DNA of 59,658 nt, from positions 1 to 59,658 of the forward strand of contig JBDKSP010000060.1 in NCBI GenBank assembly GCA_039680575.1, read 5' to 3'. The DNA is from Armatimonadota bacterium (GTDB taxonomy: Bacteria; Armatimonadota; UBA5829; DTLH01). This document shows, piece after piece, positions 48,117 through 54,404 of this stretch; the first letter of the stretch is position 1, and each line of letters opens with the position of its first letter. A program made the translations under genes and the position numbers. The notes under the pieces were generated by a model. That model was given only the letters and a program-made list of their open reading frames with translations. It ran no database searches and was not told where the DNA came from.

Positions 48117-48725
48117 ATGGATGAACAATTAGAACAAGAAGACCGGGAGGAGCGCCCACAGCAGGACGAAAAGGACCTGCCTGCCGGGATTGCGCGCCTC
48201 CATGATGAATGGCTCCAGCAGGGACTGATTCCAACCGAATTGAAAGAGCCCGTGGAGCTGGAACCGGTAGTGTTTCCGGAACCGGTCGGTGATTATAAAA
48301 TAAATGTCGAAGATGCGCGGGCGATGCTCGGTCTTTCACCCGATGCTATGGAACGGCTGTTGGTCGGTGGTGAACTCGACTCCATACAAGTCCGGTTTGA
48401 GGACGGTGTAAGGCGTATGATCAGCCAATCGGCGCTGTCCCGGTTCGTCGAGGACACCGGAATGGCTCCCGAAATTTCGGAAAAGCTCAATTTTCCGGCA
48501 GAGGAAATCAACGCCGCGCTTGAATCGATCCGCGAGGAGATGCGAGAGATGAAAGAGCTGCATACCCGCCAACTTCAGCAGTTCAAGGATATCCTGCTGC
48601 TCGAACTACGCAATCTGAAAGAGCAGGATCGGGACCTGACGTCGTTTGTGTACGACCTGACGGCAGCTCTTGAGGAGCTTAATCCCAAACTGAAGAAGCG
48701 GAAGCGCACGCCTCCGCCCGAGTAA
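48117..48725 (+). CDS. Hypothetical protein with excisionase/MerR-like HTH and C-terminal coiled coil
   Basis: INVEDARAMLGLS...LLVGGELDS...RRMISQSALSRF resembles an HTH_17-type domain; heptad-rich tail ending KKRKR. Confidence 0.65.
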   Translation: MDEQLEQEDREERPQQDEKDLPAGIARLHDEWLQQGLIPTELKEPVELEPVVFPEPVGDYKINVEDARAMLGLSPDAMERLLVGGELDSIQVRFEDGVRRMISQSALSRFVEDTGMAPEISEKLNFPAEEINAALESIREEMREMKELHTRQLQQFKDILLLELRNLKEQDRDLTSFVYDLTAALEELNPKLKKRKRTPPPE

Positions 48726-48760: not shown

Positions 48761-49942
48761 GTGAAATACAAAGATATTTTCGAGCTTGACAGTAAATACG
48801 TAATGTCCACCTGCACGCGTCAGCCGCTGGCTATCGTCAGAGGAGAGGGTGCACGTGTGTGGGATGATACGGGAAAAGAATACCTCGACTTTGTCGCCGG
48901 TATCGCGGTAAACGGCCTCGGGCACTGCCACCCCAAAGTGGTGGAAGCAATACAAAAGCAGGCAGCGGTGCTGATGCATACCAGCAACCTGTACTACACC
49001 GAGCAGCAGCCCGCGCTTGCGGAAATGCTCATAAAGTGGTCGGACTTCGACAAAGTATTTTTCTGCAACAGCGGAACCGAGGCGAACGAAGCTGCGATAA
49101 AGCTTGCCCGAAAATGGGGGAAGCAGCGTTCGGAGAAGAAAATAGAGATCGTCACTGCGATTGGGTCGTTTCATGGCAGGACAATGGGCTCACTTACAGC
49201 CACGAGCCAGGCCAAATACCAAAAATGGTTCGCTCCGCTCGTACCGGGGTTCAAATATGTCCCTTACAATGATATAGGGGCGCTTGAAGAGACGATCTCC
49301 GAAAACACCTGCGCGGTAATACTCGAGCCGGTGCAGGGTGAAAGCGGCGTCCATCCGGCCTCTCCTGAGTATCTGCAGTTCGCACGGACGGCATGCGACT
49401 CGGACGGAGCCCTGCTTATCTTCGACGAAGTGCAGACTGGAATCGGTAGGACCGGCAAAATGTTCGCTTACGAGCATTTCGGCGCAATCCCTGATGTAAT
49501 GACCCTTGCAAAAACGCTCGGTGGAGGTTTCCCGATAGGCGCGTGCCTTGCCCGGGGAGACGCAGCCGGCGTGCTGCAGCCGGGAGACCACGCTGCGACG
49601 TTTGGAGGCAATCCCCTCGCCTGCGCGGCCGCCATGGCTGCGTTTTCGACAATCCACGATGACGGGCTTATCGAAAACGCGAGGGATAACGGAGAGTATC
49701 TCAAAAAAAGGCTCAAATCGCTGAAGAAGACCGGCGCGCCGATAGAGGAAGTCCGCGGGATTGGGTTGATGATCGGTGTCCAGTTGACTGAACCGGTTGC
49801 CAAAGCCCTGGTATCGGCCTGCATGGACAAGGGACTCCTGCTGAACGCGGTAGGAGACAGTATTCTGAGATTTCTTCCTCCTCTCATCATTACCAAAGAA
49901 GATATAGATTTAGCCATCGGCATAATCGCCGAAGGCATGTAA
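48761..49942 (+). CDS. argD: Acetylornithine aminotransferase
   Basis: YLDFVAGIAV, NSGTEANE, SFHGRT, EPVQGESG, FDEVQTG, TLAK. Confidence 0.95.
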   Translation: MKYKDIFELDSKYVMSTCTRQPLAIVRGEGARVWDDTGKEYLDFVAGIAVNGLGHCHPKVVEAIQKQAAVLMHTSNLYYTEQQPALAEMLIKWSDFDKVFFCNSGTEANEAAIKLARKWGKQRSEKKIEIVTAIGSFHGRTMGSLTATSQAKYQKWFAPLVPGFKYVPYNDIGALEETISENTCAVILEPVQGESGVHPASPEYLQFARTACDSDGALLIFDEVQTGIGRTGKMFAYEHFGAIPDVMTLAKTLGGGFPIGACLARGDAAGVLQPGDHAATFGGNPLACAAAMAAFSTIHDDGLIENARDNGEYLKKRLKSLKKTGAPIEEVRGIGLMIGVQLTEPVAKALVSACMDKGLLLNAVGDSILRFLPPLIITKEDIDLAIGIIAEGM

Positions 49943-49982
49943 AGAGTAAACAAGACGCTGGAGTCGAAAGGATAATTACGGT

Positions 49983-51455
49983 ATGTGGGATAAATTTACG
50001 GAACGCGCGCGCAGAGTGATCTTCTTCGCTCAACAGGAAGCGGGCAGGTTCGGGGAAAACCATGTATCAACGGAGCATCTCCTGCTCGGACTGATAAGAG
50101 AGCCGAGCAGTATCGCAGTGAAGGTGCTGAAGAACCTGGATGTGTCGCTCGACATCATAAGGGCCGAACTGGATTCGAATGTGAAGCGGGGTGAAGGCAG
50201 ATTAGGCGATGACATGCAGCTCGCACCTCGCGCCAAACGGGTAATAGACCTGGCTTATGACGAGGCCAGGGAGCTCGACAACAGTTACATCGGCACAGAA
50301 CACCTGCTTCTGGGGCTTATCCACGAGCGTGAAGGGATCGCAGCCAAAGTCCTTGCACGGCTTGGCGTAACGCTCGACAGAGCCCGCGTAGAAACGTGTG
50401 ATCTCCAGGAAAGACGGGACCAGGAAGCCAGGGAACAGAGCGGAGAAGTCGCAAGGATGCTGATAGACGATGTTGGGTTTGGCCCGAACCATCCTCAAAG
50501 TATTGCAGGCCTGAAAAATACCAGGCGGCTTCGCGGCAGGAGCATCATGTCCATACTCGACCTGTCGACAAGTGAGATCGACCTTGTTCTGGGCGTCGCG
50601 GAACTGCTGAAAAGGACCATCAAGGAAGACCCGACTTCTCACAGGTCTATCCTGCCCGGCCGGACGCTTGCAATGATCTTCGAGAAACCCAGCCTGAGGA
50701 CCAGGGTCACGTTTGAGACGGGAATGACCCAACTCGGCGGACATGCGATCTATCTTGCGCCCACAGACATAAGCATCGGAGTCCGCGAGACTGTGGAAGA
50801 TGTAGCGAAGAACCTTTCACGGTGGTGCAACGTCATCATGGCCAGGGTGTTTTCTCACGATACGGTAACCGGGCTTACCAATAACGCGACTATTCCTGTA
50901 ATCAACGGCCTTTCGGACCTCGAGCATCCGTGCCAGGTGCTTGCCGATTTCCAGACGATCAAAGAGAGAAAAGGCGAGTTCAATGGGCTGAAGCTCGCGT
51001 TCATCGGCGATGGGAACAATGTGGCGAACAGCCTGATGCTCTGCGCCGCGAAAGTCGGGACCCATTTTTCCATAGCATGTCCCGAAGGCTACGAACCTGG
51101 CGAAGAGATTACGCAGACCGCTCGTGAGATCGGTGAAAAAACCGGCTCCAGGATCGAGATAGTGAGAAACCCCGCTGAAGCTGCCGAAGGCGCGGATGTG
51201 CTTTACGCAGATGTCTGGGCGTCGATGGGACAGGAAGCGGAGCAGGAGCTTCGGAAAAAAACTTTTGCTTCGTATCAGATCAACAGTGAGCTGATGGCTA
51301 AGGCAAAACCGGATGCCATCGTACTCCATTGCCTGCCGGCACATCGAGGCGATGAGATCACATCCGAAGTGCTGGACGGACCGCAATCGGCCGTATTCGA
51401 CGAAGCGGAGAACCGGCTCCACGCACAGAAGGCACTTCTCTCGTTGATCGTATAA
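49983..51455 (+). CDS. argF: ClpC N-terminal-domain / ornithine carbamoyltransferase fusion
   Basis: Residues 1 to about 143 form two Clp-N repeats (FTERARRV..TEHLLLGL; PRAKRVI..GTEHLLLGL). Residues from about 182 carry OTC motifs FEKPSLRTR, HPCQ, SMGQE and HCLP. Single open frame. Confidence 0.95.
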   Translation: MWDKFTERARRVIFFAQQEAGRFGENHVSTEHLLLGLIREPSSIAVKVLKNLDVSLDIIRAELDSNVKRGEGRLGDDMQLAPRAKRVIDLAYDEARELDNSYIGTEHLLLGLIHEREGIAAKVLARLGVTLDRARVETCDLQERRDQEAREQSGEVARMLIDDVGFGPNHPQSIAGLKNTRRLRGRSIMSILDLSTSEIDLVLGVAELLKRTIKEDPTSHRSILPGRTLAMIFEKPSLRTRVTFETGMTQLGGHAIYLAPTDISIGVRETVEDVAKNLSRWCNVIMARVFSHDTVTGLTNNATIPVINGLSDLEHPCQVLADFQTIKERKGEFNGLKLAFIGDGNNVANSLMLCAAKVGTHFSIACPEGYEPGEEITQTAREIGEKTGSRIEIVRNPAEAAEGADVLYADVWASMGQEAEQELRKKTFASYQINSELMAKAKPDAIVLHCLPAHRGDEITSEVLDGPQSAVFDEAENRLHAQKALLSLIV

Positions 51456-51560: not shown

Positions 51561-52745
51561 ATGAGCACCGTTTTACTCGTCTATTCGGGTGGGTTGGACA
51601 CATCTGTCTGCATCCCGATGATGAGAGAGGATTATGGCTTCGATCACGTCGTGACCGTAACCATAGATGTCGGCCAGCCGGCCGCTGATATAAAAGAAGC
51701 TGAGACGAAAGCTAAAGCCCTCGGTACGGAACACTACACCATCGATGCGAAGGAAGAATTCGCAAGAGACTTCATCTTCCCCGCCATCAAAGCCAACGCC
51801 GATTATGAGGGTTATCCGCTCAGTACATCCATCGCCAGACCGCTGATCGGGCTCAAGGTTGTGGAAATTGCGAAGAAGACCGGAGCTGAGGCATTCTGCC
51901 ACGGCTGCACCGGCAAGGGCAACGACCAGTTCCGCATCGAGTTCGCAATACGTGCATTCATGCCGGATGTGAAGATCATCGCGCCTATGCGCGAGAGAAA
52001 TATGACCCGCACATGGGAAATCGATTACGCCAAGAAAAAGGGCGTTCCCGTATCGCAGAGCGCAGCCAAAATCTGGTCTATCGACGAGAACATGTGGGGA
52101 CGTTCCATTGAGGGCGGCAGGCTCGAAGAGCCGGATTATGTCGCACCGGAAGAGATTTTCAAGTGGACTAAGAGCCCGTTGGATGCGCCGGACCAGCCGC
52201 GCGACGTCGAACTCGGGTTTGAAAACGGTGTACCTGTGTCTATAGATGGAAAGTCTTTGTCTCCCACACAGCTCGTGATAGAGATGAACCATATATCAGG
52301 TGAATACGGCGTCGGCAGGCTCGACATGATGGAAGACAGGATGATGGGGCTCAAGGTCCGCGAGAACTACGAGTGTCCCGGCGCAGTAGCGATCCTGAAA
52401 GCCCACAAAGCGCTCGAAGCGCTGGTATGCACTAAGGAAGAGCTCAGATTCAAGTCGATAGTGGATGTCGAGTGGGGCAAGCTGGTCTACGAGGGGTTGT
52501 GGTTCGACCCGTTCAAGGAAGACCTGGATGCATTCATCAACAGGATTCAGGAACGCGTGACGGGCACGGTCAAACTGAGGTTCTATAAGGGCAATGTGAG
52601 CGTCATCGGACGGGCGAGCAAGCATGCGCTTTACTCCGAGGAGATGGCGAGCTTCGACACCGACTCGTTCGACCAGTCCAGAGTGGCAGGTATGGTGGAA
52701 CTCCACGGCCTGCAGGCCCGGATGTACCGGCAGGTGAAGGGTTAG
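51561..52745 (+). CDS. argG: Argininosuccinate synthase
   Basis: YSGGLDTS, STSIARP, HGCTGKGNDQFR, SIDENMWGRSIEGG. Confidence 0.97.
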   Translation: MSTVLLVYSGGLDTSVCIPMMREDYGFDHVVTVTIDVGQPAADIKEAETKAKALGTEHYTIDAKEEFARDFIFPAIKANADYEGYPLSTSIARPLIGLKVVEIAKKTGAEAFCHGCTGKGNDQFRIEFAIRAFMPDVKIIAPMRERNMTRTWEIDYAKKKGVPVSQSAAKIWSIDENMWGRSIEGGRLEEPDYVAPEEIFKWTKSPLDAPDQPRDVELGFENGVPVSIDGKSLSPTQLVIEMNHISGEYGVGRLDMMEDRMMGLKVRENYECPGAVAILKAHKALEALVCTKEELRFKSIVDVEWGKLVYEGLWFDPFKEDLDAFINRIQERVTGTVKLRFYKGNVSVIGRASKHALYSEEMASFDTDSFDQSRVAGMVELHGLQARMYRQVKG

Positions 52746-52997: not shown

Positions 52998-54404
52998 ATG
53001 ACTGATAACTCAAAAAAACTCTGGGGCGGCAGGTTCGCCAAGTCTACTGATAAGGCTGTGGAGGAATTTACCGCCTCGGTGCATTATGATTCGCGGCTTT
53101 TCGTGCAGGATATAAGGGGCTCGATTGCCCACGCGCAGATGCTAGGCAAATGCGGTATCATCCCAGCGGACGATTCATCAAAGATTGTGGAAGGGCTCAA
53201 GTCGCTTCTCGAAGATTACCGCGCCGGCAAGGTCGAGTTCGACCCTTCAGCCGAAGATGTCCATATGAACGTCGAAAAGCTGCTTTACGCGCGTATAGGA
53301 GATGCGGCAGGGCGGCTCCACACCGCTAGAAGCCGCAATGACCAGGTTGCGACGGATGTCCGGCTGTGGATGAAGGATGAAACCAGCGTAATCACGGAGC
53401 TTATAACCGATTTTCAGCGCGTGCTTGTCGATCTGGCCGGAGACCACCTTGACACGCTCATGCCGGGCTACACCCACATGCAGCACGCCCAGCCGGTGCT
53501 TCTGGCACACCACCTGCTTGCGTATTTCTGGATGCTGGAACGGGACAAGGGCCGGTTCAACGACTGCCGGAAACGCGCGGATGTGCTGCCGCTTGGGTCG
53601 GGCGCGCTCGCCGGGACAGGATTTCCTATAGACCGAGAATTCGTCGCACGGGAGCTTGGATTCTCCTATATATCTGAAAACAGCCTGGATGCTGTGTCTG
53701 ACAGAGACTTTATCTCCGAATTTCTCGCCGCAGCCGCGATTGCAATGACACATCTCTCACGGTTTGCCGAAGAGTTGGTCTACTGGTCGACGCCGGAGTT
53801 CGGGTTCGTCGAGCTTGACGACTCCGTCACCACCGGATCGAGCATCATGCCCCAAAAGAAGAACCCCGACGCTGCCGAGCTCACCCGCGGCAAGACCGGA
53901 AGGGTGTTCGGGGACCTGATGACTATCCTGACAGTCCAAAAAGGGCTGCCGCTCTCGTATAACCGCGACCTGCAGGAAGACAAGGAGCCCATTTTCGATG
54001 CTGCGGATACACTCCGCGGCGCGCTCAGTGTCTTTATACCGATGGTAGCGACAGCAAAGTTCAATAAAGACAGGATGCGCCGGTCTCTCAAGGGAGATTT
54101 TTCGACTGCGACCGATCTCGCGGACTATCTCGTGCGGACGGGAATGCCGTTCAGAAACGCCCATGCGGTAGTCGGCAAGCTCGTAGCCGACTGCATAGCT
54201 TCAAACAAGGATTTGTCGGACTTGACGCTCGATGAGTTAAGACACCTCGTCCCGGAGGCGGCGGAAGAAGCCCTTCGGGTCCTCAATCCTGAGGAAAGTG
54301 CCGCCGCAAGGTCGGTACCCGGTGGTACAGCCCGTTCCGCCGTCGAACACCAGCTCGATGCTGCGCGTGCGGCTTTGTCTATAGATTTTCGGCTGATTAA
54401 TTAA
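52998..54404 (+). CDS. argH: Argininosuccinate lyase
   Basis: LWGGRF, HTARSRNDQ, PGYTHMQHAQP, TGSSIMPQKKNPD, YNRDLQEDKE. Confidence 0.98.
   Translation: MTDNSKKLWGGRFAKSTDKAVEEFTASVHYDSRLFVQDIRGSIAHAQMLGKCGIIPADDSSKIVEGLKSLLEDYRAGKVEFDPSAEDVHMNVEKLLYARIGDAAGRLHTARSRNDQVATDVRLWMKDETSVITELITDFQRVLVDLAGDHLDTLMPGYTHMQHAQPVLLAHHLLAYFWMLERDKGRFNDCRKRADVLPLGSGALAGTGFPIDREFVARELGFSYISENSLDAVSDRDFISEFLAAAAIAMTHLSRFAEELVYWSTPEFGFVELDDSVTTGSSIMPQKKNPDAAELTRGKTGRVFGDLMTILTVQKGLPLSYNRDLQEDKEPIFDAADTLRGALSVFIPMVATAKFNKDRMRRSLKGDFSTATDLADYLVRTGMPFRNAHAVVGKLVADCIASNKDLSDLTLDELRHLVPEAAEEALRVLNPEESAAARSVPGGTARSAVEHQLDAARAALSIDFRLIN

Follow-up and report, generated by a model that had tools for sequence, protein, structure and literature searches.

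Phosphorylation of arginine is known mainly as a degradation mark that is read by ClpC, and the other reader that we found in the literature is the actinobacterial repressor ClpC2. The N-terminal domain (N-domain) of ClpC was co-crystallized with phospho-arginine (pArg), as described in a paper (PDB 5hbn). According to PMC12583610, the two pArg pockets of this domain also anchor the inactive resting state of ClpC, in which T7 and R9 contact the neighboring M-domain, while D356 of AAA1 is the partner of K85 and N462 of the M-domain that of R122. The same source reports that ClpC is activated by free pArg, half-maximally at approximately 0.22 mM, and not by arginine, that a hydrophobic groove of the N-domain binds substrate and that K85 is contacted by each of the cyclic peptides found in complex with the N-domain of ClpC1. 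Mycobacterial ClpC2 carries a module resembling the ClpC1 N-domain on a repressor; it binds and responds to pArg with a KD of approximately 5 µM, loses pArg binding upon mutation of a conserved pocket threonine (T99A) and was additionally proposed to act as an antibiotic sponge (PMC13345244). Here, we analyzed a stretch of 59,658 nucleotides from an Armatimonadota bacterium (contig JBDKSP010000060.1, assembly GCA_039680575.1; called the window below), in which a ClpC-type N-domain is joined in frame to ornithine carbamoyltransferase (OTC) within a cluster of arginine biosynthesis genes. Both domains are known, as is a detached ClpC-N-like pArg sensor in the form of ClpC2, but in no paper that we found is such an N-domain described on a metabolic enzyme, nor its spread and turnover within the phylum or its occurrence in genomes in which no McsB was found. 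The literature search returned no report on a Clp_N-OTC fusion, on a link of ClpC or pArg to OTC, or on Clp_N domains in Armatimonadota. At a probability of about 0.4, we favor the reading that the N-domain is a portable mimic of the ClpC N-domain, which would bind the ligands of ClpC and thereby make OTC answer to the ClpC system.

The fused gene (49983..51455; all features of the window named here lie on the forward strand) is a single open reading frame (ORF) that starts with ATG and encodes 490 amino acids plus stop, as judged from the ORF list, the sequence, Pfam and NCBIfam. The original prediction, made from the letters of the DNA, had described one 490-aa ORF between argD and argG with a double Clp_N repeat, a linker of approximately 40 aa, an intact OTC and no AAA+ module, and both the position and this anatomy proved correct. 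The ClpC-type N-domain comprises residues 1–143 (49983..50411) and matches Clp_N (PF02861) in two stretches with 106 bits, compared to a cut-off of 20.7 (E 1.1e-30); the profile match in the genome search located the two repeats at 50028-50177 and 50253-50390. Pfam matched neither an AAA+ family nor a helix-turn-helix (HTH) domain in the fused protein, and the Clp models of NCBIfam match only its residues 5–157, far below their cut-offs. With the N-domain of the 828-aa ClpC encoded in the same genome, 95 of 143 residues are identical in an ungapped alignment (66%). Residues 1–140 align to N-domain chains of Bacillus subtilis ClpC, including 5hbn, with an E-value of about 4e-39, and PDB chains that carry the name ClpC2 give much poorer matches (E 1.6e-18 and 1.5e-14) than those of ClpC. 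The fusion thus shares the double Clp_N fold family and the residues T6, E31, E106, R8 and K85 with the N-domains of B. subtilis and Staphylococcus aureus ClpC and of Mycobacterium tuberculosis ClpC1, but it lacks the AAA+ rings, the M-domain and the ClpP-binding part, carries OTC in their place, has alanine at position 81 and belongs to a family in which R122 is relaxed. In common with ClpC2 of mycobacteria and Streptomyces, it has a ClpC-N-like module that is detached from the unfoldase and joined to another function. ClpC2 combines a DNA-binding repressor partner with one pocket and approximately 40% identity to the ClpC1 N-domain (PMC13345244), whereas the partner here is a metabolic enzyme, both pocket glutamates are kept and the identity to ClpC is 66%. 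The order of the parts differs as well, since in ClpC2 the N-terminal DNA-binding part precedes the N-domain-like module, while in the fusion the N-domain comes first and is followed by OTC.

Comparison of the pocket residues requires a shift in numbering: before a one-residue insertion near position 72, residue n of the fusion corresponds to n+1 in B. subtilis ClpC, and after it to n. Pocket 1 is retained with T6 in the F-T-E-R motif and E31 (50073-50075) in the first T-E-H motif, which are equivalent to T7 and E32 in B. subtilis. In pocket 2, formed by T81 and E106 in B. subtilis, E106 of the second T-E-H motif (50298-50300) is kept, while the threonine of the T-P-R motif is replaced by Ala81 (codon gca, 50223-50225). 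All of these codons were read in the sequence, in which E31, E106, R8 and R83 are present as originally predicted, as is the replacement of TPR by APR in the second repeat. Residue conservation was computed over 162 OTC-associated N-domains and 25 N-domains of ClpC. In the OTC-associated set it amounts to 0.90 for T6, 0.86 for R8, 0.98 for E31, 0.97 for H32, 0.90 for P82, 0.91 for K85, 0.90 for T105, 0.98 for E106 and 0.99 for H107, so that pocket and anchor residues rank among the best-conserved positions of these domains. R122 is invariant in the ClpC set (1.0) but reaches only 0.54 in the OTC-associated set.

Between the genome of the window (G000) and a congener (G198), the ratio of non-synonymous to synonymous substitution rates (dN/dS) amounts to 0.027 in the N-domain and 0.102 in the OTC part, compared with 0.316 in the linker. 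The N-domain is thus under strong purifying selection and more constrained than the enzyme in this lineage. Across the phylum, N-domains of ClpC are 74–100% identical to the one in this genome (at least 85% in all but three lineages), whereas the identity of OTC-associated N-domains to the same reference extends from 87% down to 32%, indicating that the latter evolve faster and at very different rates. The N-domain tree (78 rows, 145 columns) is mostly unresolved, with 37 of 70 inner branches open, and only a few supported joins were used: three of them place OTC N-domains with ClpC of the same lineage (SH-aLRT 94, 96 and 96), and the starred branches force at least three label changes. With low certainty, these joins suggest that OTC N-domains were repeatedly copied or converted from clpC. 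We read the N-domain as a probable derivative of clpC that is kept ClpC-like by selection.

It is hardly credible that the fusion is an artifact or a functionless accretion, be it through loss of a stop codon, through chimerism of the assembly or as a remnant in decay. Such a view could draw on three genomes that encode the two parts as separate genes and on the NCBI protein P0035 ('Armatimonadota bacterium', 314 aa), which corresponds to the congener's gene and starts at an internal CTG. P0035 is identical, letter for letter, to the frame in G198 (L011, G198:C3), and this frame extends 176 codons upstream to an ATG, so that the short protein reflects a start-site call and not a separate gene; the public annotation thereby hides the N-domain, which is entirely omitted from the congener's protein. 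In G198, the same 490-codon frame is intact at 92% identity, and the frame is open in 38 inspected genomes and in 119 of the 120 best database homologues. The original prediction had pointed to read coverage at the domain junction, and the junction is indeed bridged by a contig of 1191 nt (run X2, record 5) that belongs to an independent study and spans 49919-51109 with seven substitutions and no gaps; the complete stretch is present in run X1, which might itself be the sample of origin. The low dN/dS of the N-domain argues against decay. An internal start at Met188, which is preceded by AGGAG and would give a short OTC, was set aside, as this position is not conserved even in relatives that are 88–90% identical, where it is occupied by threonine. 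Among the runs listed as containing the stretch, none is recorded as RNA, and the metatranscriptome runs X7 and X8 contained nothing on it and give no information on expression.

Fusion of the N-domain to OTC recurs across the phylum Armatimonadota. Among the 119 fused proteins within the 120 best database homologues, which include the protein of the window itself, 97 have one N-domain module, 20 have two and two have three. All five fusion-family proteins with an organism name come from Armatimonadota or Chthonomonadales, one of them being the shortened P0035. In a sample of 401 genomes of the phylum, the 150 best matches that were listed include 56 that cover the query from end to end, with alignments that begin at residue 4 or earlier and reach residue 488 or later. 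These 56 come from the families f1, f2, f3, f4, f10, f11, f16, f18, f27 and f29, and a further 566 matches lie beyond the 150. Comparison of argF in related genomes, as proposed in the original prediction, revealed mostly fused genes and not two genes throughout: the 63 inspected loci, each from a different genome of the phylum, comprise 38 fused and three split cases as well as 22 in which the approximately 1.5 kb upstream contain no N-domain, although in two of the latter (G313 and G326) the upstream region is interrupted by a contig end. Clustering at 50% identity yielded, among the 150 best representatives, 14 proteins with N-domain and OTC, 47 with tandem N-domains only (2–8 modules) and 89 plain OTCs. 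In many other phyla, 80 OTC loci matched the query only from residue 144–224 or thereabouts to 490, but these were found by OTC-motif patterns and therefore represent no census of fusions. In the ESM Atlas, only a plain OTC cluster aligned by structure (residues 179–490), and the search by features gave no usable match.

The split forms consist of true pairs of genes. A two-module N-domain ORF that terminates with TGA or TAA precedes argF in G017 and G001, where argF has a Shine-Dalgarno sequence of its own and starts with GTG. In G230, an AT-rich spacer of approximately 215 nt lies between argF and a preceding N-domain ORF with one module (180-aa open frame). The open-frame lengths given for G001 (701) and G017 (739) are two frames joined across an in-frame stop (331+1+369 and 343+1+395, respectively) and were not used for fusion counts. 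Four genomes (G288, G321, G351 and G184) contain the fusion plus a further N-domain ORF just upstream. In PyrB/PyrI, a transcarbamoylase core of the same superfamily is accompanied by a separate, ligand-binding regulatory module, a layout which the split N-domain/argF pairs resemble. PyrI has an unrelated fold and a fixed interface, whereas a Clp_N repeat on a floppy tether is found here. The split forms raise the possibility that the free N-domain may bind OTC itself.

The enzyme part consists of a carbamoyl-phosphate-binding domain (residues 186–328, 50538..50966; PF02729 OTCace_N, E 1.1e-43) and an ornithine-binding domain (residues 335–488, 50985..51446; PF00185 OTCace, E 2.4e-61). The motifs SLRTR (residues 237–241, 50691-50705), HPCQ (315–318, 50925-50936), SMG (414–416, 51222-51230) and HCLP (449–452, 51327-51338) were read in the sequence and do not vary among the 58 aligned sequences of fused homologues (alignment A1); we take S-x-R-T-R, H-P-x-Q, S-M-G and H-C-L-P to be the motifs for binding of carbamoyl phosphate and ornithine. 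The C-terminal 305 residues pass the OTC cut-offs of NCBIfam (TIGR00658, 394.8 vs 280.85 bits; NF001986, 427.6 vs 306), and the other gene with an OTCace fold in this genome is PyrB (403 bits vs a cut-off of 263), so that the fusion is the only OTC of the genome. The gene is thus predicted to encode a catalytically complete anabolic OTC, which resembles ArgF of the TIGR00658/NF001986 type in its scores above the equivalog cut-offs, all four catalytic motifs, its place in an argD-argF-argG-argH cluster and its being the sole OTC, and differs from it by approximately 185 additional N-terminal residues. OTCs are normally trimers, and each subunit of the trimer would consequently carry one N-domain.

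The linker between the two parts comprises residues 144–185 (50412..50537), as delimited by an AF2 model, dN/dS and comparison of homologues, and its first portion extends the last helix of the N-domain. The AF2 model (mean pLDDT 90.2, pTM 0.66) contains two confident domains, N-domain and OTC, each with a pLDDT above 90, and a long helix from residue 131 to 162, while residues 157–167 have a pLDDT below 50 and are predicted to be disordered. Among fused homologues, linkers are 17–192 aa long and rich in Pro, Ala, Ser and Glu. A tether that is predicted to be floppy and varies in length would speak against a fixed allosteric interface, and together with the variable number of modules it suits recruitment by avidity better than a fixed allosteric contact. 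Prediction of a complex between residues 1–145 and the OTC core (residues 177–490) with alignment A1 gave an ipSAE of 0.00 in two runs without controls, which is evidence neither way. The idea of an arginine-rich linker as built-in phosphorylation site was dropped because arginine accounts for 6.5% of linker residues and is not enriched. A clade with long linkers, comprising 54 of the 119 fused homologues (e.g., P0049, P0053 and P0085), has a conserved motif of approximately PSQRMAPPxGxSxxADVLxExRLRGRDILGIE just before the start of OTC, which the protein of the window lacks.

The genome also encodes a putative form of the system to which the N-domain is proposed to connect OTC. At G000:C40:7052-11175 (L040, reverse strand), genes for an mcsA-like Cys-rich ORF of 125 aa, an mcsB-like protein of 379 aa with phosphagen-kinase fold and the ClpC-type ATPase of 828 aa are adjacent to each other, and the kinase match (PF00217, E 6.1e-49) lies directly upstream of clpC. 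A low-molecular-weight phosphatase is encoded as well, and MecA was not found in this genome. A ClpC-type N-domain with 54–100% identity to the one of this genome was found in 43 of the 44 genomes searched, all but G298, and thus also in genomes without McsB match. In the favored reading, a flexible tether would connect every OTC subunit to one ClpC-type N-domain, which would bind ligands of the ClpC N-domain, namely pArg marks set by the McsA/McsB-like kinase encoded beside clpC. Alternatively, phosphorylated McsB, another adaptor or possibly the M-domain/AAA1 surface of ClpC itself could be the ligand. OTC would thereby become answerable to ClpC proteostasis through regulated recruitment, sequestration, turnover or competition with ClpC for ligands. 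This reading combines the identity to ClpC, the conserved pockets, the selection on the domain, its apparent renewal from clpC, the floppy tether, the row of mcsA-like, mcsB-like and clpC genes together with the phosphatase, and the precedent of ClpC2. From the conserved residues, we infer that the pockets may still bind pArg-type ligands, and ligand binding would presumably change the activity, location or stability of OTC.

The original prediction had suggested an arginine/pArg sensor, a trimeric decoy for pArg proteins or a link of OTC to the Clp machinery. These three possible roles are partly supported: they would fit the conserved pockets, the purifying selection, the ClpC-like character of the domain and the mcsA-like and mcsB-like genes next to clpC, and they are complicated by Ala81, by fusions in lineages in which no McsB was found, by frequent loss of the domain and by the floppy tether of variable length. 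Several observations weigh against the favored reading. Thr81 is less frequent in OTC-associated N-domains (0.81) than in those of ClpC (0.96) and is replaced by alanine in the protein of the window; in ClpC2, mutation of a conserved pocket threonine (T99A) ended pArg binding (PMC13345244). The McsB-like protein of this genome scores below the equivalog cut-offs of NCBIfam for protein-arginine kinase (293.7 vs 385). Moreover, PF00217 was not found in seven of 37 genomes with an N-domain-OTC association, namely in f10 (3/3 genomes, 95–98% complete), f6 (2/2), G230 (one contig, 100% complete) and G298, and it was found in five of seven genomes without the association, indicating that McsB is not required. 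The domain also appears to be dispensable: fused and plain states are interleaved in the OTC tree with 11 changes, at least six of which are forced by starred branches, and according to this tree the N-domain was gained or lost at least six times. G267 and G004 of the same family have the same operon (HTH-like gene, argD, argF and argG) with plain argF, and no spare N-domain gene was found elsewhere in these two genomes, the sole match in G004 being ClpC. Pure tethering would not readily account for the split forms unless the free N-domain protein binds OTC, and nothing that we found explains why OTC in particular serves as carrier.

Among the other explanations, we regard it as unlikely that the N-domain is a small-molecule sensor or substrate holder, the pockets of which bind a phospho-guanidino metabolite or a related one, such as free pArg or carbamoyl phosphate, and tune OTC or hold the labile substrate. 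It would be analogous to the regulatory chain of the homologous aspartate carbamoyltransferase, and within the domain, conservation is highest in the pocket residues. The shape of pArg is close to the adduct of ornithine and carbamoyl phosphate and to the OTC inhibitor PALO. In some relatives, the N-terminal extension additionally contains MshEN, another ligand-sensing domain. The association is retained in genomes without an McsB match, and arginine control must be unconventional, as no ArgR C-domain (Arg_repressor_C) was found in this genome or in any of 44 genomes of the phylum (0/44). Free pArg is an effective ligand of the ClpC N-domain (half-maximal activation of ClpC at approximately 0.22 mM, PMC12583610) and of ClpC2 (KD approximately 5 µM, PMC13345244), but the former also reports that non-phosphorylated arginine does not activate ClpC via the N-domain. 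A floppy linker of 17–192 aa with one to three modules provides a poor geometry for a fixed allosteric interface, the identity to ClpC is high over the whole domain and not in the pockets alone, which suggests shared protein partners, and no paper was found that joins ClpC, ArgF and phosphoarginine. Three papers listed for phosphoarginine together with OTC dealt, by their titles, with arginine metabolism in general and with a foraminifer.

A further explanation is a role in trans, in which the N-domain of OTC would occupy those M-domain/AAA1 sites of ClpC that serve the N-domain of ClpC in the resting state, and would either deliver OTC for regulated degradation or modulate ClpC activation. 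The resting-state anchors T7, R9 and K85 named in PMC12583610 are kept as T6, R8 and K85 (0.90, 0.86 and 0.91), and a ClpC-type N-domain was found in 43 of the 44 genomes searched including those without McsB match, but the anchor R122 is relaxed from 1.0 in ClpC to 0.54. As the kept residues are also part of the pArg pockets or lie next to them, the models cannot be told apart by this conservation, and such docking seems rather improbable to us. We are similarly skeptical that OTC merely serves as an abundant and stable scaffold displaying decoy N-domains, which would soak up pArg-marked proteins under stress or ClpC-directed natural-product antibiotics and so buffer ClpC, in the way proposed for mycobacterial ClpC2. 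The ClpC2 report describes a pArg binder and antibiotic sponge (PMC13345244), and K85, the residue contacted by all ClpC1-bound cyclic peptides in PMC12583610, is kept in 91% of OTC-associated N-domains. The variable module number on OTC (1–3), the proteins consisting of 2–8 modules only (47 of the 150 best representatives) and the apparent repeated refreshment of N-domains from the resident clpC would agree with a sponge. However, a sponge would not depend on one specific carrier, whereas the domain has stayed linked to argF, fused or split and operon-adjacent, in at least 10 families, and close relatives have lost the domain while no replacement N-domain gene was found (G004 has a ClpC match only).

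ClpC-like N-domains occur on further proteins of the phylum. A 655-aa protein in G210 (L164:963-2927) consists of a ClpC-like N-domain, HTH_17 and a complete T2SSE ATPase of the PilB/GspE type, and G103 (L165) encodes a protein with N-domain and HTH_17. Clp_N proteins that begin or end with hydrophobic, membrane-like segments are encoded at L167, L168 and L169 (G210, G351 and G184, respectively) and may represent membrane-anchored copies of the module. Between N-domain and OTC, P0031 contains an MshEN domain and P0052 the N-terminal 110 residues of a T2SSE ATPase, while P0064, P0092 and P0113 have a precomputed match to PF00437 and linkers of approximately 180–190 aa; in these fusions, it looks as if argF had captured the 5' part of an N-domain-T2SSE gene. 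Tandem-only proteins with 2–8 modules include P0135 (1762 aa), P0173, P0134 and P0130, the last of which comes from Paractinoplanes globisporus and is annotated as 'Clp protease N-terminal domain-containing protein'. Such stand-alone or tandem proteins share with the fusion the ClpC-like N-domain modules without ATPase, but differ from it in that no enzyme is attached.

The occurrence with HTH_17 and T2SSE, in membrane proteins and on OTC with MshEN or T2SSE inserts suggests that the N-domain is a portable input domain. Extending this, the ClpC N-domain of Armatimonadota might be a portable reader of arginine phosphorylation, comparable to the SH2 domain for phosphotyrosine, that was placed on OTC, PilB-like ATPases, membrane proteins and tandem arrays and that, on OTC, ties the synthesis of arginine to its phosphorylation. 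OTC would then sense pArg-marked proteins, or free pArg as both signal and active-site mimic. We consider this broader idea doubtful, but if true, the ClpC N-domain would work as a general signaling module. The fusion offers a simple, soluble test object for ligands of ClpC N-domains in organisms where no McsB was found, as the enzyme is easily assayed with and without the domain.

In the window, the fused gene is preceded by an argD-like gene for a class-III aminotransferase (48761..49942; PF00202, E 2.8e-129) and followed by argG for argininosuccinate synthase (51561..52745; PF00764 and PF20979) and argH for argininosuccinate lyase (52998..54404; PF00206 and PF14698). ArgR was dropped as a discriminator between fused and unfused genomes, as its C-domain had no match in any of them. 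Upstream of argD, a 202-aa protein is encoded at 48117-48725, a position that is shared with G267 (L041:728-1393) and G004 (L042:1053-1730) of the same family. This protein ends in a coiled coil and matches excisionase-type HTH_17 weakly, without reaching the cut-off (E 0.0027). As no ArgR C-domain was found in this genome or in 44 genomes of the phylum, the protein is a candidate for the regulation of the arg operon.

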